From positions 5,280,001 through 5,344,000 of the forward strand of contig OZ242010.1 in the NCBI GenBank assembly GCA_965204745.1: a stretch of DNA of 64,000 bases, read 5' to 3'. Below, piece after piece: positions 3,271 through 59,989 of the stretch. Position 1 is the first letter of the stretch; every line of letters starts with the position of its first letter. A program made the translations under genes and the position numbers. The notes beneath the pieces were generated by a model. The model made no database searches. It was not told where the DNA came from and worked only from the letters and a program-made list of their open reading frames with translations. This DNA is from Candidatus Latescibacterota bacterium (GTDB lineage: Bacteria > Latescibacterota > UBA2968).

Positions 3271-6200
3271 ATGAAACTCTCCGAATACGCGATTGACAAA
3301 CCCATTACCACAGTGATGGCCGCGCTGAGTCTCGTGGTCATCGGATTTATCTCCCTGTTCAGATTGCCCCTCGAATACGCGCCGGACTTGCAGTATCCCA
3401 GAATGTACGTGGGGTTTTCGTATCCCTCGTCGTCGCCGGAAGAGATCGAGCGGAAAATCACCAAGCCCATCGAAGAAATGATGGGCACGATTTCCGGGAT
3501 CGAGTCCATCCGAGCGCGGTCTTATGGCAGTCGGGGGTACGTGTTCATGGAATTTGACTATGGCACGGACATGGAACTCAAGTCGATTCAAGTGCGCGAC
3601 CGCATCGATCAGGTTCGCAACTTACTGCCCGAAGACTTGGAGACCATCGAAACGCGCCGATGGGATTCGTCCGATTGGGAAATTTTGGACTACAACATGA
3701 CGTGGCTAGGCGACGATCCCTCGGAACTCGCCACCGTGTATAAAACCACCATCTTGCCCCGCTTACAACGCATTCCCGGGGTGGGCAATGTGGAAATGGA
3801 AGGCGCGGATGAAAAAATCCTCAGAGTCGATGTGGATCAAAACCGCATGCACGCGCATGGCTTGGACATTCGCACCCTCAACAGAACGATTCGGACGAAC
3901 AACATCAACATCTCGGGCGGGTACGTCACCGATGGCGGCAAACGCCTCGCGGTGCGCGCGGTCGGCGAATTTGACGAAGTCGATCAAATCCGCGATCTCG
4001 ACTTGCCCAATGGCCTCGAGATAAAAGACGTGGCGCAGGTGAGTTACGACTATCCGGAAAAGCGGTACTTCGAACGCTTGGACGGGCGAGACGCGGTCTC
4101 GATGGAAATTCGCAAAACCTCCACCGCCAATCTGGTCGAAACGTGCAGGCTGGTCAGGGCAGAAATCGAAGCCCTACAAGACGACATCGGGCGCGACAAA
4201 TTGCGCCTGCATCTGCGCCGCGACCAATCCGAAGCCGTGATCGCGGGCATCGCGGACCTGGGGCAATCGGCTATCTTGGGGGGCATGCTGGCGATTTGCA
4301 TCATCTTTGTCTTCTTGCGAAACTTCCGCAGCACGCTCATCGTCGGCTCTGCCATTCCCATTTCCGTCTTGTGCGTTTTCGTGATCATGTATTTGATGCG
4401 GCAGGTTTTTGGATCGACCATCACCTTGAACATGATCTCGATGATGGGCCTGATGGTCGCCATTGGGATGCTGGTCGATCCCGCTGTGGTGGCATTGGAG
4501 AATATCTATCGCAGGCGCTTTGACGAAGGCGACGGCGTGCGCGACGCGGCGATAGAGGGCAGCAGGGAAATCGGCATCCCGGTGCTGGCGGCCGCGCTGA
4601 CGACGATCTGCGTGTTCGTCCCCCTCATTTTTATCTCTGGCTCGTACAACACCATGTGGATGCGCGACTTTGCCATCACCGTTTGCATTTCCGTGGTCGC
4701 GGCCATGTGCGTGGCCTTGAGCCTCATTCCGCTGGCGTGTTCGCGGGCCTTTGCCTCTGCTGGCAACCGCGTGGATCTCGCGTTGAAACTCGGCTTGGGC
4801 GCGCTGTTTTGCGCGGGCGCGATCTACCTCATCCACCGGGAGGGCCTCGCGGAATCGGGCGCGTGGATCGCGGAAAACGCGCTGTGGCTTTTGGGCGGGC
4901 TCGCCACCGTGGCCATAAGCGTTTGGCTCGCACTCGGCGCGGCCGTCGCAACGCTGGCCTTTTTCTATTTTCGCCTGCGGCACCTCGGCCTCAAGGGCGT
5001 GTACGCGCGCGTCATCGGCACGACCCTGCACTATCGTTGGACCACGGTTGTGGTCGCCACGTTCATCTTGTTCAGCGGCATCTACATCTTCACCAAAATC
5101 GAAGTCCAACGCTACCGCTATCAACCCAACCGCATGGTGGGCTATACGGTGGAAATCCCGCGCACGTACGACATCGACGACGCGCTCGTCCTCTACAAAC
5201 AAATCGAAGCCATCCTGTTGCCGCACAAGGAAGAACTCGACATCGAAGCCATCAAAACCCGGTTCAGCACTCGGCGCGGCAATACGATCTATCTGTACCT
5301 CAAACCCGCTGAAGAAAGCGCGTACAGCACGGATGAAGTTCAAAAAAAGGTGACCGTGCTGTTGCCCAAAGACATCCCCGGCGTGCGCTTTAAGTCGGGC
5401 TTCAGGCGCAGGGGCAGCAGTGGCACGGGCGTGGGCATCGAAATCAAGGGCAGAAACCAGGAAGTGCTGGCGATTTTGGCCGAAGACATCCGCCTGCGAA
5501 TGGACGACATCGCGGGCATCCACACCGTCGAGACCAGCTTGGAAAGCGGCACCGAGGAAATTCGCGTGTCCGTGAACCGCACGCGGGCGCAGCAATTTGG
5601 CCTGTCGTCCCAACAAATTGCCAGCACGGTCGCCACGGCCTTGGGCGCGCGCGGGAACAGCAAGTTCAAAACGCCGGATGGGGAAATCGACATCGCCTTG
5701 CAACTGCGAGAAGAGGACCGCGCCACGCTGGACCAACTCAAAACCCTGTCTTTTGAAAGCGACCAAGGCAGCATGATTTCATTTGCCAGCCTCGCGGACT
5801 TTGAATTGACCAAAGGCCCGCAGTCTATCGAACGCCAAGATCGCATGTCCACCGTGACCGTCTTCGCCAATACCGAGGCGTCCGAGGTGCAAAAGGTCGG
5901 CTTTGAAATGCGCGACCGCATGGACGCCATCCCCTTGCCCAAGGGGTATAGCTGGCAGATGGATCGCCGGTTTCGGTACATGGCGGCTGAAGAGGGGGAA
6001 AGTAATTTCACGATGGTTTTTGCCGCGCTGCTCATCTACCTGATCATGGCGTCCCTGTTTGAATCCTACATCCACCCGTTCACGATCATGTTTTCCATCA
6101 GCTTTGCGTTTATCGGCGTGGCGCTGGGGCTTTACATTTTTGGCGTGGTGCTCGACAGCAACGCGACTTATGGGTTGCTCATCTTGTTCGGCATTGTGGT

Positions 6201-52285: not shown

Positions 52286-52564
52286 ATGAACTGGACCGTC
52301 ACAATAGGTACGAGGGCACAAAAACAAATCAGGCGTTTACCCGAACAGATCAAAAAGAATCTTGTTGCTCTGATCAGAGAGATTGAAGTGGCAGGTCCAG
52401 TTCGTGGGAACTGGCCTAATTATAGCTCTCTCGGAAGAAATCGGCACCATTGTCACATCAAAAAAGGAAGACCGACTTACGTCTCTGTTTGGGAAGTAAA
52501 GGACAAAAACATCAAACTGGTAGAGGTGACTTATGCAGGTACCCATGAAAAAGCACCGTACTGA
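52286..52564 (+). CDS. RelE/ParE-superfamily toxin (HigB-like arrangement)
   Basis: 92 aa basic. W.V...A.KQ...LP, GP.RGNWPNYS.L, HHCHIKKG.PTYV, YAGTHEKAPY. Overlaps the downstream HTH gene. Confidence 0.78.
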   Translation: MNWTVTIGTRAQKQIRRLPEQIKKNLVALIREIEVAGPVRGNWPNYSSLGRNRHHCHIKKGRPTYVSVWEVKDKNIKLVEVTYAGTHEKAPY

Positions 52565-52889
52565 AGCAGACACCATTGAACTGCGCTTTCTCGGTCCGCA
52601 AGAAAAACGCAAGCAAGCCATTCGCGTACTCGATTCCATGGGCTTTGTGGATATATCCGATTCAGTTCCCTGGCAGGCGTGTTTTTCGTATGCTGACGAA
52701 CAGTTGCCCAGCATTTCTCTGGCGGGAGCAAGGGAAAAGGAAGGGTTGACACAACGAGAACTGTCTCGGTTGACGGGCATTCCGCAACGACGTATTTCAG
52801 AAATGGAAAATGGCAAACGGCCCATTCAAAAAGAAACAGCGAAAAAACTGGGGAAAACACTCAACATCAGCTATAAAGTCTTTCTGTGA
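52533..52889 (+). CDS. XRE-family HTH antitoxin (HigA-like)
   Basis: AREKEGLTQRELSRLTGIPQRRISEMENGKRPI...AKKL. Confidence 0.85.
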   Translation: MQVPMKKHRTEADTIELRFLGPQEKRKQAIRVLDSMGFVDISDSVPWQACFSYADEQLPSISLAGAREKEGLTQRELSRLTGIPQRRISEMENGKRPIQKETAKKLGKTLNISYKVFL

Positions 52890-52952
52890 ACCGACAGATC
52901 GCCTAAAAATATCCACTGAAATTTTTTGACGCTCGTCTTTCCGAGGGAAGCG

Positions 52953-53750
52953 ATGTCTTTGACGCAAGCGCAAATTGACCGCTTTCGCAAGTGGGGGTAC
53001 GCGGTCGTGCCCGATATGTTCACGCGGCGGGAAGTGCGTGCGATGCGCGGGGAACTCGACCGCTTCAAGCGCGAGGGGCTTCTCCGCAATGTGGCGACGG
53101 ATGGCGATGGGCAAACCCATTCGCAAACGCAGATCAACTTGCAGATTTGCCCCATCACCCCCAAGAGTGCGTTTTACCGCGCCCTGCACTTTCACCCCAA
53201 GGTCATCGCGCTCGTCGAACAACTCATCGGCTCGCCCTTTGTGTTCTACCTCGATCAGATCTTTCTCAAACCCGGCAAACAGGGCATTGGCACGGACTGG
53301 CATCAGGACAACGCCTATTTCAAAGTCAGGGACCCGGGCAAAGGCGTTGGGATGTGGGTTGCCCTGCACGATGCGACTATCGCCAACGGCACCTTGCACA
53401 TCATTCCCGGCAGCCATCGAGAAAACCATGCCCACGACCGCGATCCCAACAGCGACCACCACATTCACTGCGCCGTGCCCGAAGAGAGGGCCATCCCCAT
53501 TGAATTGCCGGCCGGAGGCGCGGTCTTTTTTAATTTTGGCATCGCGCACAGCACCCGCGCAAATACCACAGCCCGAGAACGCGCGGGCCTTGCCCTGCAT
53601 TTTTTGAACGCGGACTATATTCCCGAAAACATCAGAGGCACGCGGCGATATACCCACCTCACAGGCCCTCTCGCCACGGGTGGGAAGAGGGAATACGGCC
53701 GCTGCATTGCCAACACTTGGCGCGATGAAGTGGATCGCGTGCTTGGGTGA
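52953..53750 (+). CDS. PhyH-family Fe(II)/2OG dioxygenase
   Basis: FRKWGY, FLKPG, WHQDNAYF, NGTLHIIPGSH, AHST.AN...R. Confidence 0.9.
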   Translation: MSLTQAQIDRFRKWGYAVVPDMFTRREVRAMRGELDRFKREGLLRNVATDGDGQTHSQTQINLQICPITPKSAFYRALHFHPKVIALVEQLIGSPFVFYLDQIFLKPGKQGIGTDWHQDNAYFKVRDPGKGVGMWVALHDATIANGTLHIIPGSHRENHAHDRDPNSDHHIHCAVPEERAIPIELPAGGAVFFNFGIAHSTRANTTARERAGLALHFLNADYIPENIRGTRRYTHLTGPLATGGKREYGRCIANTWRDEVDRVLG

Positions 53751-53833: not shown

Positions 53834-53862
53834 TTGACATGTTTCCCCAAATCAGATAGTTT
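53834..53862 (+). promoter_or_regulatory. Sigma-70-type promoter for the viperin-containing unit
   Basis: TTGACA-17 bp-TAGTTT preceded by an A-tract. Confidence 0.6.
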
Positions 53863-53899
53863 TTGAGCAGAACATAGAACCTCGTGCTTTGATGCGTTT

Positions 53900-54040
53900 T
53901 GCATCTCTTCCGATCCCGATGGTCTCAGTCGGGAATCCTACGGGTTCGACAATCTGTAACGGGATGCGCGGATTGTTTGGTTTTATTCGACAAGCCGATA
54001 ATCCCGTTCGATTGCCCCACTTGGGATAGGGTGTCGCTTA
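53900..54040 (+). ncRNA. Candidate structured leader RNA with H-type pseudoknot
   Basis: Stem 53948-53957/53968-53977; loop AACGGGAT (53958-53965) is complementary to ATCCCGTT (54001-54008). Further hairpins on either side. Confidence 0.35.
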
Positions 54041-54054
54041 ACAAAGGAGTGGGA

Positions 54055-55854
54055 ATGAGCGAAGCCAAAGATGGCCGTTCTGGCCTTGTTTTTCCGCTAC
54101 GCGATTCTTCTTCCGAAGAAATTTTCCTCATTGTGCAGTGCCTTCAGGACGCTGGTTTTTCCCGCCATGACCGAGCATGGCTGGTGCGCGTTTTTGAACG
54201 CCCAGATTGTTTTGGCGATCCCAACGGGGACGCTGTGTTGAAAGAGGCGTTTGCGGCTTCTTTTGAGCATGTTCTGCCCGGCGTCGTGGAAGAATTGGGC
54301 GAACCGGAGCAAACCGAGGAAGACAGGCAGAACCGCTTGGCACTTCTGTTCGGGTTCCTGCTTGGCTTTGGGCCGATCTACAGCGAGGTGGTTCTACCCG
54401 ATGACAGGCTCGGAAAATCGGGCGACGCTTGGCATGTTCCCGCGTGGGTTGGCGCGTTCCAAAAGCACGCGAGGTTTTGTGCGAAAAGTCTGGGTTGGCA
54501 AAAACTCAATGCGTTGCGGGACGCGGGTGTTTTTCGATTCTTTGACCTGATTCCATTTCTCTTTCCCAAAGGCGTGCCATTGGCCCAGGTCGTGGAGTTG
54601 GGCTTGTTAAATCCGATTCTGCGACGCGGATGGTCGAGCGATGATTTTCGGGATCCCAGAGAACTCGAGTTTTGGTTGATCTGGCGATTTCGCACGGATG
54701 CCGAATGCCGCGACATGATTGACCTGCACACGTTATTGCGAGCGTTTTCAGAGTTTCCCGATGGCGTTTTGGGCGATAAAATACTCGGGCTGTTGAACGC
54801 CATCGAATACGCTATGAACCTGGGATCGGCATTGGGCGATAAACGCCTGAATGCGTTGGGCGACGGATGGCGGGTTGTTGCACGGGAGTTGACGCCGTTT
54901 TGGGAACTGTTGAATGGGAAATCGCCAGAGTCGCAGCCGCAACCCTCATCCCTGCTCAAAGCATGGTGGCGGTTGGCTGTGGCGATTCACTACAAAAGTA
55001 TGGGTGGGTTGGAATCCGATCTCGCCGATGAACTCAGGAACCAGCTCGTCGAAAGTGCCGCACGGCACATTGGGATTTTGCGAAAGATAGTGCGAGAAAC
55101 GCCTGAAAATTTTGCAGGTAGGGATTCGACGGGAATGCCCGTTTCCGATTTTTACGACAAGGCGTTTGAAGTGCTGTGCATTTTTGCACCCCCGTGGAAA
55201 TGTCTGAAGTCCTTATTGCTGGCTTTTTCCGAGATGACCGTGCCGGCCATTGCATCTGATCTGCGGCCATGGGCAGAAGCGAACAGAGAAGCCCCGCCGC
55301 ATCCGCATCATCACATCCCGCTGTGGATCGGCATCGCCATGTATCCGCAGAATCTTCGGAATGAATTGAAGCGAGACCCGCACTTGCGGCGGTTGCGCGA
55401 GGAGTTCGCCAAATTTTGCCTCGACCGGCTCAAAACAAAAAAAATTGACACCGAGGCGAAAACCGAGGTGTCTGATTACGCAGATGAAGAATTTGTCGAA
55501 CCGCGTCGCCCGTGGCGACGGTGCTATGTGCAAGCCGTAACCGCATTGCGCGTCAATCCCGGCGGCCGGGCGCACAGAACCCTGTTCTGGCTTTCTAGGA
55601 ATGATCCGGATAAAACGGTCCGAGAATTTGCAAAACGAGCGCACGGACAAATTCGGCATCTCAACCGCAACAAATCGAATTTAGATCGCGGTGCATCACC
55701 CCGCCGCCCCCTATTTGAAGCCTTTTGGTGGCTTCGCCAAGCGCATCTGTTGACGCTCGACAAACCGATTGATGAGGCGGGCGCGCTGCGAACGCGCAGA
55801 ACGGAGTTGCACCGCACCCGCGAGAAAGCTGATCGCCTCAATTGGGAAGCATAG
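54055..55854 (+). CDS. Hypothetical protein, 599 aa, Trp/Leu/Arg-rich, probably alpha-helical
   Basis: Long ORF, SD aaggag before ATG 54055. No family recognised; C-terminal DPDKTVREFAK looks HEAT-like. Confidence 0.8.
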   Translation: MSEAKDGRSGLVFPLRDSSSEEIFLIVQCLQDAGFSRHDRAWLVRVFERPDCFGDPNGDAVLKEAFAASFEHVLPGVVEELGEPEQTEEDRQNRLALLFGFLLGFGPIYSEVVLPDDRLGKSGDAWHVPAWVGAFQKHARFCAKSLGWQKLNALRDAGVFRFFDLIPFLFPKGVPLAQVVELGLLNPILRRGWSSDDFRDPRELEFWLIWRFRTDAECRDMIDLHTLLRAFSEFPDGVLGDKILGLLNAIEYAMNLGSALGDKRLNALGDGWRVVARELTPFWELLNGKSPESQPQPSSLLKAWWRLAVAIHYKSMGGLESDLADELRNQLVESAARHIGILRKIVRETPENFAGRDSTGMPVSDFYDKAFEVLCIFAPPWKCLKSLLLAFSEMTVPAIASDLRPWAEANREAPPHPHHHIPLWIGIAMYPQNLRNELKRDPHLRRLREEFAKFCLDRLKTKKIDTEAKTEVSDYADEEFVEPRRPWRRCYVQAVTALRVNPGGRAHRTLFWLSRNDPDKTVREFAKRAHGQIRHLNRNKSNLDRGASPRRPLFEAFWWLRQAHLLTLDKPIDEAGALRTRRTELHRTREKADRLNWEA

Positions 55855-55902
55855 TGTCCCCCTGCGGCGATAGATACCAACGAGAAAGGAGGTGATGAGA
55901 AT

Positions 55903-56067
55903 ATGGCGAAAATCAGTGGCAATCGCTCGGGCGGTACCCGCAGTGGCGGTAAAGGTGGTCGGCAAAGCGGCGGTCAAAGCAAAAGCCGTGGAAGTGGCGG
56001 CTGGCCGAGCAAGACCGGCAACCGCTCCGGCACTGGCCGAACCAATGCCCCGCCGAAAAGCAAATGA
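55903..56067 (+). CDS. Small Gly/Ser/Lys/Arg-rich peptide, 54 aa (absent from the ORF track)
   Basis: Perfect SD AAGGAGGTGA at 55886-55895. MAKISGNRSGGTRSGGKGGRQSGGQSKSRGSGGWPSKTGNRSGTGRTNAPPKSK*. Confidence 0.72.
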   Translation: MAKISGNRSGGTRSGGKGGRQSGGQSKSRGSGGWPSKTGNRSGTGRTNAPPKSK

Positions 56068-56200
56068 ACTGATCGGAAGGTGCTGATAACGCCAGTTCAT
56101 TCACGCGATCAACACCTTCCGCCAACAACTGGTGCGTCCGCACTTCGTGGCTCAATAGCCACCCGTTTGATCTCTTCGAGATCGTGCTATGGCGCATCCT
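56063..56200 (+). ncRNA. Candidate structured RNA (pseudoknot or switch, plus multibranch domain) upstream of viperin
   Basis: 56063-56071 pairs with 56093-56101 (9 bp); 56074-56087 pairs with 56108-56121 (13/14). Hairpins at 56147-56162 and 56169-56183 are enclosed by 56131-56143/56184-56198. Confidence 0.4.
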
Positions 56201-56243
56201 TTCAAGACAATTTTTGAATCGCCTTGTCAAAGGAGAAAGGATC

Positions 56244-57143
56244 ATGAAAATGACCATCAATTCCCCCGATCTGTCGCAGAAAATTCCATCGGTCAACTAC
56301 CATCTCTGGGAGCCGTGCAACATGCGTTGCAAGTTCTGTTTTGCCACATTTCAAGATGTCAAGCGAGACATGGAACTGCCCAAAGGTCACTTGCCGGAGA
56401 ATGAGTGTCTCTCGGTCGTGGATCGACTTGCCGAAGCCGGTTTTGAAAAGATCAATTTTGCCGGCGGAGAACCCACGCTTTGCCCTTGGTTGCCAAACTT
56501 GATCAAGCGGGCAAAGAACCATGAGATGGTCACCTCCATCGTTACAAATGGATCGAGAATCACCGATCCATGGCTGGACGGGCTGAACGGAAGTTTGGAC
56601 TGGATCGCGTTGAGCATTGATACCGTTGATCCGGAAAAACTGAAACGCTCGGGTCGCGCACTTGGTGGTGGAAAGAAACCCATGACCGAGGAAGAATATC
56701 TGGGCATCATCCGCACCGTAAAGCGACGAGGGGTTCGGCTGAAAATCAACACGGTCATCACTTCTGAAACGTGGCAAGAGGATTTTACCGACTTCATCAG
56801 ATCGGCCAAACCGGAGCGATGGAAGTTGCTCCAAGCCCTCCGCGTCGAGGGGCAAAATGACGCGCATATCGCCGATTTCGAGATCGCGCCAGAGCAATTC
56901 GAGGCGTACGTCCAACGCAATCGCATCGTCGAAAATGACGGTATTATCGTCGTGCCAGAGAGCAATGAAATGATGACGGAAAGTTATGTCATGATCGACC
57001 CAGCGGGCCGCTTTTTTGATAACGCACAAGGTGCCCATACTTATAGCCGCCCTATTTTGGAGGTTGGCATTGAAGATGCTTTGCAGGATGTATCGGTTGA
57101 CCGTGAACGTTTTCTCAAAAGAGGAGGGCAGTATGAGTGGTGA
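56244..57143 (+). CDS. Prokaryotic viperin (RSAD2-like antiviral radical SAM enzyme), 299 aa
   Basis: SVNYHLWEPCNMRCKFCF, KINFAGGEP, SIVTNGS, KINTVI, RWK.LQ.L...GQN, M..SYVMIDPAGRF, C-terminal F.KRGG.Y.W. Confidence 0.93.
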   Translation: MKMTINSPDLSQKIPSVNYHLWEPCNMRCKFCFATFQDVKRDMELPKGHLPENECLSVVDRLAEAGFEKINFAGGEPTLCPWLPNLIKRAKNHEMVTSIVTNGSRITDPWLDGLNGSLDWIALSIDTVDPEKLKRSGRALGGGKKPMTEEEYLGIIRTVKRRGVRLKINTVITSETWQEDFTDFIRSAKPERWKLLQALRVEGQNDAHIADFEIAPEQFEAYVQRNRIVENDGIIVVPESNEMMTESYVMIDPAGRFFDNAQGAHTYSRPILEVGIEDALQDVSVDRERFLKRGGQYEW

Positions 57144-57343
57144 TACACTCCCGCGCTGAAGCGAAGCGGGGTGAGGCCGTTAGAAATGAGGAGCGAAACC
57201 TCGCTGAGAAAGTTGCCCGACGCGAGGCAGTGCTTCAGGCGTACCGGATGTTTGACCCGATTGAGATCGATACCAGTCACCTCGATCCCGATGCCGTACT
57301 CGTAGCGGTGCTCGAGGTTCTGCACAAATCCGTATTGTGTTAA
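57137..57343 (+). pseudogene. C-terminal fragment of a nucleoside monophosphate kinase (CMPK2/thymidylate kinase-like), no P-loop
   Basis: RG....EE..L......R..V..AY.....IEIDTS.....V...VL..L resembles the recalled lid and C-terminal part of CMPK2-type kinases. Overlaps the viperin stop. Confidence 0.55.
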
Positions 57344-57354
57344 GCATCTGATAC

Positions 57355-57395
57355 AAAAAAGTGCCCCGGCGATGTTTTGCCGGGGCACTTTTTTT
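57355..57395. terminator. Bidirectional intrinsic terminator
   Basis: aaaaaagtgccccggc-gatgtttt-gccggggcacttttttt. Confidence 0.9.
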
Positions 57396-57427
57396 GTCAC
57401 CGTCGAGGGTTTAATCCGCGCCATCCC

Positions 57428-59989
57428 TTAATCCGCGACAATCCGCGATCCAGACTGGAGAAACCGGCCCGTGTGGGAAGTGGGAACGCGGGTGATCGCT
57501 TCGGGGGTGCCCGTGGCGACGATGTGCCCGCCGTTTTCGCCGGCGTCGGGGCCGAGGTCGATGATCCAGTCGGCGCGTTTGATCACGTCGAGATTGTGCT
57601 CGATGACGAGCGCGGTATTGCCGCGATCCACGAGGCGGTCGAGCACTTCGATGAGCACGCGGATGTCGTCAAAGTGCAAGCCCGTGGTGGGTTCGTCGAG
57701 CAAGTACAGGGTCTTGCCCGTGGCACTGCGCGCCAGTTCAGTGGCGAGTTTCACGCGCTGTGCCTCGCCGCCGGACAATGAGGTGGCCGCCTGCCCCAAG
57801 CGCAAATAGCCCAGGCCCACGGCTGCGAGGGAGTTGAGGTGTCGCTGTGCGGCGGGAATGTTGCGGAAAAAGGACTGCGCCTGCGCGACGGTCATGTTCA
57901 ACGCGTCGGCGATGGAACTGCCCTTGTACCGGACCTCGAGGGTTTCCCGGTTGTAGCGCGTGCCCGCGCAGGTGTCGCAAGTGACGAACACATCGGGCAA
58001 GAAGTGCATCTCGATGCGGCGCACCCCATCGCCCTGACAGGCTTCGCACCGCCCGCCCTTCACATTGAAACTGAACCGGCCCGCGCCATAACCGCGCACT
58101 CGGGATTCGGGCAGTTGCGCGTACAGGTCGCGGATGGCGGTGAACGCGCCGGTGTACGTGGCGGCATTGGATCGCGGGGTGCGCCCAATGGGCGATTGGT
58201 CGATGCGGATGACCTTGTCGAGTTGCCCCATGCCCTCTATTGCGCGATGGGGCAGGGGGTCTGCATTCGCGCGGTGAAAATGCCGGGCGAGCGCGGGATA
58301 CAGGGTTTGGTCGATGAGCGAACTCTTGCCGGAGCCGGACACGCCGGTGACGCACACAAAAACGCCCAGTGGAATATCCACCTCCACGTCTTGCAAATTG
58401 TGCCCACGGGCGCCCCGAATCGAGAGATGGCCGTGCGGTTGGCGCGCATCCGGAGGCGGGGGAATGGTCTTGCGCCCCGAGAGATAATCGCCGGTGAGGG
58501 ATCGTTCATCGGCCATCACGGTTCGCGGCGCACCCTTTGCGATCACCCGGCCCCCGTGTTCGCCCGCGCCCGGCCCGAGGTCGATGAGATAATCGGCCAT
58601 TTCCATGGCTTCGCGGTCGTGCTCGACCACGATGACCGAATTGCCCAAATCGCGCAGATTGCAAAACGCTTTGATGAGTTTGCGATTGTCGCGGGGGTGC
58701 AGGCCAATGCTCGGTTCGTCGAGCACGTACAGGACGCCAACGAGGCGCGTGCCGATTTGCGTTGCCAAGCGGATGCGCTGAAATTCGCCACCGGAAAGCG
58801 TGGTTGCCCTGCGGTTGAGCGCGAGATACCCCACGCCCACATCTGCGAGAAAGCCGAGGCGGCTTTCGATTTCGCGGATCAGGGGCGCGGCGATCTCGGC
58901 GGCATTGTCTCGCAAGTCGAGCGTTTGAAAAAACCGCCTGATCCCATCGATGGGCAGGCGGGCGATATCGGCGATGGTGCTATCGGCAAGGGTGATGGCT
59001 AGCGCCTCTGCGCGCAAGCGCGTGCCATGGCACTCGGGGCAGGTTTGATCGCGCACGCGCGAATCGGAATCGCCCGGGGCCGGATCGCTGCTAGATGGAG
59101 GCTTGCTGAATAACTCCCCGTCAGCGCCTGCGTTGGAAACCGTCCCAAGGCCATCGCAGGTCGGGCAGGCGCCATAAGGGCTGTTGAAGGAAAACAAGCG
59201 CGGTTCGATGGCGTGGATTTCAAAATGGCCCTCTGTGCAGGCAAAGCGCGTGGAGAACGTCCAGTCGCCTTTGCCGACAATGTCGAGTGTGGCCGTGCCG
59301 TCGGCCAAATCGAGCGCGGTTTCGAGCGAATCCGCGAGGCGCGAAGCCAGGTTGCCGCGCACCACCAAGCGATCCACGACCGCGTCAATGCTGTGCGCGG
59401 CGCGTTTGTCCAAGGTGATCGCACGGTCGAGCGGCAGAATCGCGCCATCCACGCGCACGCGCAGATAGCCCGCTTTTCGCAACTGCACAAAAACGCTTTG
59501 CTGCCCGCCTTTTGCATTGCGGACCAGCGGCGCGAGCACCTGAAGGCGTTGGCCTTCGGGCAAGGCGAGCACGCGATCCACGACTGCCGCGACCGTCTCT
59601 CGGACGATGACCTGCCCACAGACCGGACAATGCGGCGTGCCAACTCTGGCAAACAAGAGGCGCAAGTGGTCATAGACTTCCGTCAACGTGCCCACGGTCG
59701 AACGCGGTGTGCGGGGCATGCCGCGCTGTTGAATTGCCACCGCAGGCGAAAGACCTTCGATGCTGTCGGCATCGGGCTTGTCCATCAAATCGAGAAATTG
59801 CCGCGCGTACGCAGACAGGGATTCGACATAACGGCGTTGCCCTTCGGCGTAGATCGTATCAAAAGCCAACGACGATTTGCCCGACCCGGAAGGCCCGGTG
59901 ATCACGACCAGACAGTTGCGCGGAATGTCCAAGTCGATATTTTTGAGGTTGTGCTGCCGCGCACCGCGAATGGTGATCGTATCGCTCAT
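57428..59989 (-). CDS. uvrA: Excinuclease ABC subunit A, short variant (853 aa)
   Basis: [39 protein letters not shown] x2, [22 protein letters not shown]. Confidence 0.95.

Follow-up and report, generated by a model that had tools for sequence, protein, structure and literature searches.

Prokaryotic viperins (pVips) make 3'-deoxy-3',4'-didehydro-nucleoside triphosphate (ddhNTP) chain terminators and have been described as one gene or as a gene with a kinase. Here, we describe a locus in which a pVip gene is instead the last gene of an operon and is interchangeable with two other enzymes. The locus lies on the forward strand, at 53834–57395 of a 64,000-nt stretch of DNA (hereafter, the window; contig OZ242010.1, positions 5,280,001 to 5,344,000) from a Candidatus Latescibacterota bacterium (assembly GCA_965204745.1). 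It forms a single promoter-to-terminator unit made up of a structured RNA (R1), the gene of a 599-aa protein (P599), the gene of a 54-aa peptide, a second structured RNA (R2), the viperin gene and a kinase remnant. A sequence-only reading of this DNA had listed a promoter, leader, 599-aa protein, peptide, spacer, viperin, kinase fragment and terminator as parts of a candidate antiviral system, and each of them was recovered at or near its proposed position.

The closest described systems are the pVips with their partners. Kinase linkage is described for 12% of bacterial viperins, and kinases and fusions are the only partners mentioned in the available part of that report, whose supplements may hold more (10.1101/2023.09.13.557418). 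The present locus resembles these systems in that its enzyme agrees with curated viperin models and in that sister loci carry a kinase of the Thymidylate_kin type. The viperin (56244..57143, +; 299 aa, a radical S-adenosylmethionine (SAM) enzyme) scores 308.9 bits against NF038283 (viperin_w_prok; cut-off 180), covering 2–280 of the 281 profile positions. It matches the PADLOC pVip models with E-values of 4.7e-114, 2.8e-89 and 2.2e-81, gives 74.2 bits with PF04055 (Radical_SAM) and contains the cluster motif CxxxCxxC in the form CNMRCKFC. A complete pVip-kinase pair is found in sister loci with intact kinases and not in the window, where a 68-aa open reading frame (ORF; 57137..57343, +) retains only the C-terminal ~56 residues of a nucleoside monophosphate kinase. 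This remnant is 64% identical to residues 142–197 of a 201-aa protein of locus L025, which Pfam assigns to Thymidylate_kin, and because it aligns only there, the P-loop part of the kinase is missing; the remnant itself had no Pfam match. The second described partnership is that of small RNase toxins of the HicA/RelE type, encoded next to pVip genes in a report whose available text mentions neither a large protein encoded upstream nor RNA elements and contains no occurrence of DUF4258 (10.1101/2023.12.08.570793). Loci of the Myxococcota type, presented below, are similar in having an ~100-aa DUF4258 protein between a P599 relative and a viperin-like gene, whereas the small gene in the window encodes a Gly-rich basic protein and not a toxin fold.

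More distant parallels can be drawn with three other groups. The comparison with modular defence systems that join a conserved sensor to exchangeable effectors (CBASS, Avs and Thoeris, and regulators such as BrxR/CapW) shows a common principle of a constant part plus a fast-exchanged enzyme, a patchy distribution and occasional phage carriage. In contrast to those systems, only the viperin of our locus matches PADLOC-DB v2, what is exchanged is an entire gene together with its RNA leader, and the control proposed below would be translational and RNA-based rather than transcriptional or dependent on a second messenger. With integron cassettes, the locus shares the precise exchange of promoterless ORFs downstream of a structured sequence that is itself conserved, but R2 is a three-way junction located 5' of the ORF and rich in G-U pairs, not an attC hairpin located 3' of it. 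With translational riboswitches and ribosomal-protein leaders, it shares a structured RNA directly before an ORF and a predicted helix that covers the Shine-Dalgarno sequence (SD); unlike them, its RNAs belong to no Rfam family, occur only inside the module in the genomes searched and, in the case of one element, serve three unrelated enzymes. No account of P599, of the peptide motifs or of the three-enzyme exchange was found in the full-text literature, whose supplementary neighbourhood tables could mention the family, and the peptide motif words did not occur in the literature searched. The earlier statement that no association of this set had been described thus agrees with PADLOC, Rfam and the full-text literature.

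The first question is whether the parts belong together or merely happen to be adjacent in one genome. Among 41 related genomes, which are not independent samples, P599 was present in 10; within the same genus, 7 of the 20 other genomes have it, as do 2 of 13 from a genus in a sister family. R1 and R2 were each found in exactly the same 10 genomes, at the same loci, and in none of the 31 genomes lacking P599, where only first-look candidates (93–150 scored per genome) were considered and weak copies could escape. Both RNAs are single-copy in the window's own genome. Viperin was present in 5 of the 41 genomes, in all 5 within the P599 module. A scan of species-representative genomes for P599 yielded 77 loci whose record titles name Latescibacterota, Poribacteria, Myxococcota, Planctomycetota/Phycisphaerae, Verrucomicrobia, Deltaproteobacteria, Gemmatimonadales and spirochaetes; being seeded with P599, these loci show P599 accompanied by the other parts and not the reverse, for which the 41 related genomes are the only basis. 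Among the 44 loci of the Latescibacterota/Poribacteria type, R1 was found in 43, R2 in 38 and the peptide in 37, in line with the earlier proposal that protein, peptide, RNAs and viperin form a conserved unit, and the peptide and the RNA folds do recur with P599 homologs, as had been suggested for checking. Since the same set recurs in 43–44 loci of two phyla, the arrangement exceeds chance. The proposed link with viperin also holds across phyla, the P599-viperin order being found in Phycisphaerae-, Myxococcota- and Deltaproteobacteria-type loci. The locus is conserved, patchily distributed and modular, with a constant front end and a swappable enzyme.

The nature of the swappable enzyme was assessed by calling ORFs in the window and the 77 loci, clustering them by blastp and assigning them with Pfam. 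The count covered 77 rows with a P599 ORF of >400 aa (the fragment L095 was dropped) and, in each, the next five ORFs on the same strand. At least one of three enzyme families follows P599 on the same strand in 63 of these 77 rows, which argues against P599 as an independent module, one of the options in the sequence-only reading. The families are a viperin-like radical SAM enzyme, often with an ~200-aa Thymidylate_kin protein (24 rows); a nuclease with Lactamase_B, Beta-Casp and RMMBL domains (19 rows); and a B12-binding plus Radical_SAM enzyme (14 rows). Two of the three were present in 6 rows and none in 14. Among these 14 are six distant loci of the spirochaete type, L059, which lies at a contig end, L056, which has a GT2 glycosyltransferase gene, and at least one case (L084) in which the clustering overlooked a viperin-like ORF. 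A partnership specific to viperin does not fit these counts, in which the beta-CASP nuclease or the B12-radical SAM enzyme takes the place of viperin about as often.

Exchange is equally apparent on a quick IQ-TREE phylogeny of P599 from the 44 Latescibacterota/Poribacteria-type rows, of which 42 tips could be labelled by the first effector, that is, the first of the three enzymes. At least 18 changes of first effector are required, against 19.1 ± 1.75 for shuffled labels (38% as low or lower), so effector type carries no phylogenetic signal. Sister pairs differ in their enzymes: L027 (nuclease) vs L028 (viperin), L049 (viperin) vs L052 (nuclease) and L060 (B12-radical SAM) vs L064 (viperin). 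Between L027 and L028, nucleotide homology extends through R2 as far as the effector start codon, is lost there and returns directly behind the effector genes. The effectors are exchanged as cassettes behind a constant front end. The same randomness on the tree, the breaks exactly at the effector ORF borders and the odd cargo (the GT2 enzyme of L056 and a GRDP-like protein in L072) could also be read as the absence of any functional coupling, with P599 independent and R2 plus the downstream flank acting as a recombination hot spot for unrelated cargo. We consider this very unlikely: even in several phyla in which R1 and R2 are not detectable, P599 is again followed by these three enzyme families, order and strand are fixed, spacing is tight, with one promoter and one terminator, all five viperins of the 41 genomes lie inside the module, and the covariation and G-U pairs of R2 indicate an RNA and not a DNA site.

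The evidence that R1 and R2 are RNAs comes from their pairing patterns. R1 (53875..53956, +; 88.1 bits with its covariance model) is a 5'-terminal three-way junction that begins a few bases after the -10 box and is built of the helices P1 (GAACC/GGUUC), P2 (GAUGC/GCAUC) and P3 (GGUCCCGA/UCGGGAAUCC). Its model gave 46 matches in 43 of the 44 loci, and the only locus without it, L045, is cut 64 nt upstream of P599. On these matches, 97.0% of the cells are paired and 16 of 20 pairs are changed on both sides; none of 500 shuffles reached these values, and slid controls gave at most 53%. The R2 model (104.8 bits for the window copy at 56121..56232, +, which comprises the junction core at 56131–56198 and a platform before the effector) gave 44 matches in 38 of the 44 loci (29 of these 38 at E ≤ 1e-6), with 93.6% of the cells paired and 21 of 24 pairs changed on both sides; again, no shuffle among 500 reached these values, and slid controls remained at or below 48%. 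Alignments fitted to models lean towards the structure, and independent MAFFT/RNAalifold runs agree, with compensatory changes in 11 of 20 pairs of R1 among 25 sequences. G-U pairs are frequent in both elements, which fits an RNA of the sense strand, and the DNA of leader and spacer is more conserved than the coding regions in an alignment of the loci. No match to Rfam 15 at the gathering threshold was found for either element in 15 loci; at E ≤ 1, the window gave only terminator-like chance matches far below the gathering scores, and L025 and L049 gave none. R1 and R2 are thus well-supported new structured RNA families, whatever their function.

Pattern scans outside the module produced only candidates that we rejected. 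A 17-base R1 pattern had 10 matches in viral contigs, of which only two fitted the model, weakly (14.9 bits, E 0.037); they are taken as chance. A 20-base R2 core pattern had six matches in metagenomes, none of which fits the R2 model or has P599, viperin or the nuclease nearby; one lies ~3.6 kb from a weak match to rSAM467 (19% identity, L114). We take these six as chance, too, and the two inspected by eye resemble coding sequence. In five Phycisphaerae-type loci (L069, L071, L080, L081 and L102), the viperin-like gene is preceded by a different conserved leader of ~135 nt with a predicted junction and a long SD-pairing hairpin; with only five sequences and three pairs changed on both sides, it may represent a third RNA motif. 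Separately, alignments show a short conserved hairpin-like motif, TTGGGAAC-GTGAGC-GTCCC, just after the P599-like stop codon in L067, L068, L073, L074, L078 and L095, which are of the Myxococcota and Verrucomicrobia types.

Which gene does R2 serve? The sequence-only reading had listed a 140-nt structured spacer among the parts of the unit. In the two-effector loci L048, L055, L051, L054 and L045, one R2 stands ahead of each effector, and because each effector has its own copy, the spacer RNA belongs to the effector gene and not to the peptide. R2 is, moreover, followed by a segment able to pair with the effector SD. A conserved UCCUUUCA directly 3' of R2 helix P1 is complementary to the effector SD UGAAAGGA; in the window, AUCCUUUC at 56196–56203 is complementary to the viperin SD GAAAGGAU at 56235–56242. 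RNAalifold applied to 16 platform-containing sequences pairs UCCUU 3' of P1 with AAGGA of the SD, with three of five pairs changed on both sides, and examples of the complementary stretches come from L040 (UCUCCUC/GAGGAGA) and L062 (UCUUCUCA/UGAGGAGA). Across 32 R2 copies, the cognate duplex between this anti-SD and the SD has a mean energy of -10.67 kcal/mol, compared with -9.94 ± 0.36 kcal/mol for non-cognate permutations (2.45% as low as the cognate value) and -7.56 ± 0.36 kcal/mol for shuffled duplexes.

These structures raise the possibility that R1 and R2 are riboswitches sensing a metabolite or nucleotide (for example, a nucleotide or an alarmone) and controlling the operon directly, with P599 as an accessory enzyme or effector. 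Both RNAs have a conserved aptamer-like fold with covariation, in the form of compact three-way junctions with invariant junction nucleotides; R1 stands at the 5' end of the transcript, the SD-pairing helix after R2 recalls translational riboswitches, and the conserved D, H, E, R and W residues of P599 could equally suit an enzyme. The distribution speaks against it: all 10 RNA-bearing genomes have their matches inside the module, the 31 genomes without P599 have none among the first-look candidates scored, and the elements are single-copy in their own genome, which is unusual for a metabolite riboswitch. In addition, the three controlled enzymes have no common substrate, no Rfam class corresponds, and the SD helix does not compete with P1. 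We therefore regard this explanation as unlikely.

P599 itself (54055..55854, +) begins at a conserved ATGAGC start at 54055; a longer frame starting with TTG at 53899 overlaps R1. It matched no family in Pfam, PADLOC (PADLOC-DB v2) or NCBIfam, and 50 diverse relatives contained no informative Pfam domain, a single irrelevant family being found in one member. Among clusters at 90% identity, 427 relatives were found at E ≤ 1e-3, and the 120 of these that were listed are 58–94% identical; among clusters at 50% identity, there are 450 representatives. According to the alignments, the conserved core is the C-terminal ~230 residues, roughly 370–599, with the motifs DLRxW, NDPDxxVR, SPRR, AFWWLRQAHL and GAxRTR, and the conserved D, H, E, R and W residues mentioned above. 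Sequence-profile searches of the PDB revealed no significant relative of the whole protein or of its conserved C-terminal domain; the weak matches were only to designed helical repeats (E 1.3e-3 to 1.1e-2), and HEAT-like feature matches in the Atlas at 0.87–0.90 are weak and serve as leads only. Neither P599 nor the 50 relatives had a Pfam match to HEAT/ARM-type repeats. The longer forms are only tandem doubles of ~1150–1200 aa with no added domain (L062, 2279–5788; proteins P0121 and P0279–P0286), which hints that P599 may act as a dimer. As a separate observation, L063 (2739–3945) contains two R1 copies and then a 263-aa ORF, resembling an IS-type transposase by eye, inserted between R1 and P599.

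By its codon pattern, the small gene that follows P599 is genuine. In the window, it occupies 55903..56067 (+) behind a perfect 12-nt SD, AAAGGAGGTGAT, at 55885..55896, and encodes a 54-aa basic Gly-rich protein of type 1 with the motif WPSKTGNxSGxGRxNAPP. A basic ORF of 33–76 aa lies between P599 and R2 in 37 of the 44 loci, comprising 22 of type 1 (WPSKTGNPSGGGRxNAPP), three type-1-like, nine of type 2 (DNRANQLNPNNDAYW), one type 1/2 hybrid and two of type 3 (...DAARIQ...KGSFAARAQRAA). The codon-position entropies of type 1 are 0.69/0.70/1.35, conserved residues are encoded by varying synonymous codons, and this coding-type variation indicates that the peptide is translated and under selection. 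A perfect SD of at least 10 nt (AAGGAGGTGA) precedes 21 of the 37 ORFs. None of the three types matched a Pfam or NCBIfam family, the window peptide had no PADLOC match, and its relatives are eight near-identical small ORFs, none of them named. The GWPSxTGNxSG peptide had been proposed as a partner within the system; a small basic ORF is indeed a regular component, but its three types are unrelated to one another and are distributed independently of the effector, types 1 and 2 each occurring with viperin, the nuclease and the B12-radical SAM enzyme. L045 has two peptide genes, a frameshifted one after P599 (1928–2090) and an intact type-1 copy (4137–4292) located between the nuclease gene and the R2 that precedes the B12-radical SAM gene. 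The effector cassette may thus on occasion carry the peptide along.

A short peptide gene just upstream of radical SAM genes also calls to mind a pathway for ribosomally synthesized and post-translationally modified peptides (RiPPs), with the peptide as the precursor on which the radical SAM enzyme would act. Such a precursor would be tied to its modifying enzyme, and here the peptide types are mixed across all three enzymes, one of the partners is a nuclease, and 7 of the 44 loci have no peptide; in addition, the radical SAM enzyme of the window passes the viperin equivalog cut-off, while the RiPP maturase models stay far below theirs. We rejected this reading as extremely improbable. A type III toxin-antitoxin-like arrangement, with R2 as an RNA antitoxin, seems unlikely as well, R2 being single-copy and not a tandem repeat, and the effectors not ToxN-like.

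The remaining features of the unit in the window are as follows. The sigma-70-like promoter at 53834..53862 (+) consists of TTGACA (53834–53839), a 17-nt spacer and TAGTTT (53857–53862). It is kept across an alignment of 10 loci, and a loose custom regular expression found a TTGAC-N16-19 promoter with a -10-like box 5–25 nt ahead of 32 of 46 R1 copies; a stricter promoter scan did not list the window's copy. The leader before P599 measures ~190 nt, and alignment and folding place more hairpins after R1 up to the ATG at 54055: the part at 53957..54054 (+), which was left out of the RNAalifold consensus, comprises a variable hairpin between CAAUC and GAUUG, a conserved AGGAUA motif and the SD of P599. 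The spacer between the peptide gene and viperin is 176 nt long, with a z-score of -4.07 for the whole fold; it starts with a hairpin after the peptide stop codon (56074..56121, +; -20.9 kcal/mol, z -4.46) that has no U tract and is also part of the minimum free energy structure of the spacer. The unit ends at a strong bidirectional intrinsic terminator (57350..57398; A6, a GC stem of 12–14 bp and U7; -33.5 kcal/mol, z -7.54), common to the module and to the convergent uvrA gene (57428–59989, -). The GC content of the module is 0.52–0.58, against 0.62–0.65 for uvrA.

Annotation of the neighbours covered 10 ORFs. The pair at 52286–52889 had been noted as a toxin-antitoxin pair 1 kb upstream: its second gene encodes a protein that matches HTH_3 at 51.6 bits and HigA, HipB and MqsA weakly, and the genes overlap by 32 nt, but the 92-aa first gene matched no family in Pfam, PADLOC or NCBIfam, so that, judged on these matches, the pair is toxin-antitoxin-like in layout only. 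A PhyH-family dioxygenase gene (52926–53750, +; 111.9 bits) ends 84 nt before the module promoter and is not conserved beside the module in other loci. The uvrA gene encodes 853 aa, of which residues 311–846 match positions 403–939 of the canonical UvrA model as the second of two stretches; relatives have ~205 nt (~68 aa) extra between the parts aligning to residues 1–301 and 299–846, and the window copy thus seems to be without an internal segment. In other loci, some neighbours are of mobile or defence type (HicA, AAA_21/AAA_15 and DUF4143). Distant P599 relatives are also encoded by two IMG/VR contigs, and in one of them (L102, 3472–11536), the P599-like and viperin-like radical SAM genes are flanked by a portal gene and a large terminase gene; going by ORF sizes, L069 is arranged likewise. 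The P599-like pair of L102 is on the strand opposite to the flanking portal and terminase genes and looks like phage or prophage cargo.

Some of this context could suit a general stress operon (for example, for desiccation, DNA damage or starvation), in which the basic proteins would protect and the enzymes would reshape the pools of RNA or nucleotides. In keeping with this, the small proteins are hydrophilic and rich in Gly, Asn and Lys, with very strong SDs, and one type resembles what we take to be LEA/SMP-like repeats; moreover, the locus adjoins uvrA in this genus and its flanks are of the housekeeping kind. Set against this, the viperin meets a curated antiviral equivalog, the small proteins match no stress-protein family, the patchiness within the genus (7/20) and the fast turnover of effectors suit accessory or defence genes better, and one copy is located between phage portal and terminase genes. 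A stress operon accordingly appears quite unlikely.

From the curated antiviral viperin, the patchy distribution, the GC contrast, the viral-contig copy and the toxin-antitoxin- and AAA_21-type neighbours, we infer an antiviral role of the module. Our preferred explanation, which we hold tentatively and at slightly less than even chances, is an inducible defence module in which R2 would gate the translation of the effector. The helix between R2 and the SD would hold effector translation off until a trigger releases it. Sensing or regulation would fall to P599 and/or the basic peptide as dedicated readers of R1 and R2, a role suggested because these RNAs were found nowhere else in the genomes searched. 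In the window, the output would be ddhNTP chain terminators made by viperin, the kinase helper having probably been lost.

Several observations weigh against such an inducible, R2-gated module. On the side of the RNAs, the energy gap between cognate and non-cognate duplexes is modest, and the minimum free energy fold of the window forms the R2 three-way junction and not the SD helix; the platform is shorter in the window, in L023 and in L024. Because the SD helix lies directly against P1 and does not compete with it, the sequence does not reveal how a switch would work. R1 lies downstream of P599 in L046 and L055 and hence is not always the leader of P599; in L046, it is preceded by a terminator-like hairpin and by its own consensus promoter (TTGACA-17-TATAAT) and heads a peptide-R2-nuclease unit, and second R1 copies in L029 (6080–8080) and L030 (7934–9750) are followed by a truncated P599 fragment and a protein of 417–475 aa without a Pfam match. 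R1 and R2 are undetected in the 34 distant-phylum loci (no model match for either), in which a DUF4258 protein or other small proteins stand in for the basic peptide, and the peptide is absent from 7 of the 44 loci. P599 has no recognisable domain, which leaves an RNA-binding or sensing role putative; the flanks are mostly housekeeping genes (uvrA, an epimerase and a Rieske protein) rather than a dense defence island; and pVips have been described as acting alone when expressed heterologously.

A more specific version of this defence module, which we put forward as a doubtful but explicit proposal, is a new kind of immune system that is induced through translation: P599, which may be dimeric, and the micro-protein would sense infection and bind R1 and R2, R1 would set the level of the operon, and R2 would be a portable leader with a locked SD, behind which any of the three toxic enzymes could be plugged in and kept silent until infection. 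If true, such a translation-induced immune module would parallel, in prokaryotes, the way in which animals induce viperin. If the RNAs do gate effector translation, this would also provide a testable explanation for the silencing of a toxic nucleotide-analogue synthase in bacteria, and the shared front end would nominate the beta-CASP nuclease and the B12-radical SAM enzyme as defence effectors. Prokaryotic viperins have been treated as stand-alone enzymes; here, viperin is the exchangeable terminal gene in all five viperin-bearing related genomes, within a unit that holds a widespread, unannotated protein family (450 clusters at 50% identity), a micro-protein family mostly missed by gene callers and two RNA motifs absent from Rfam.

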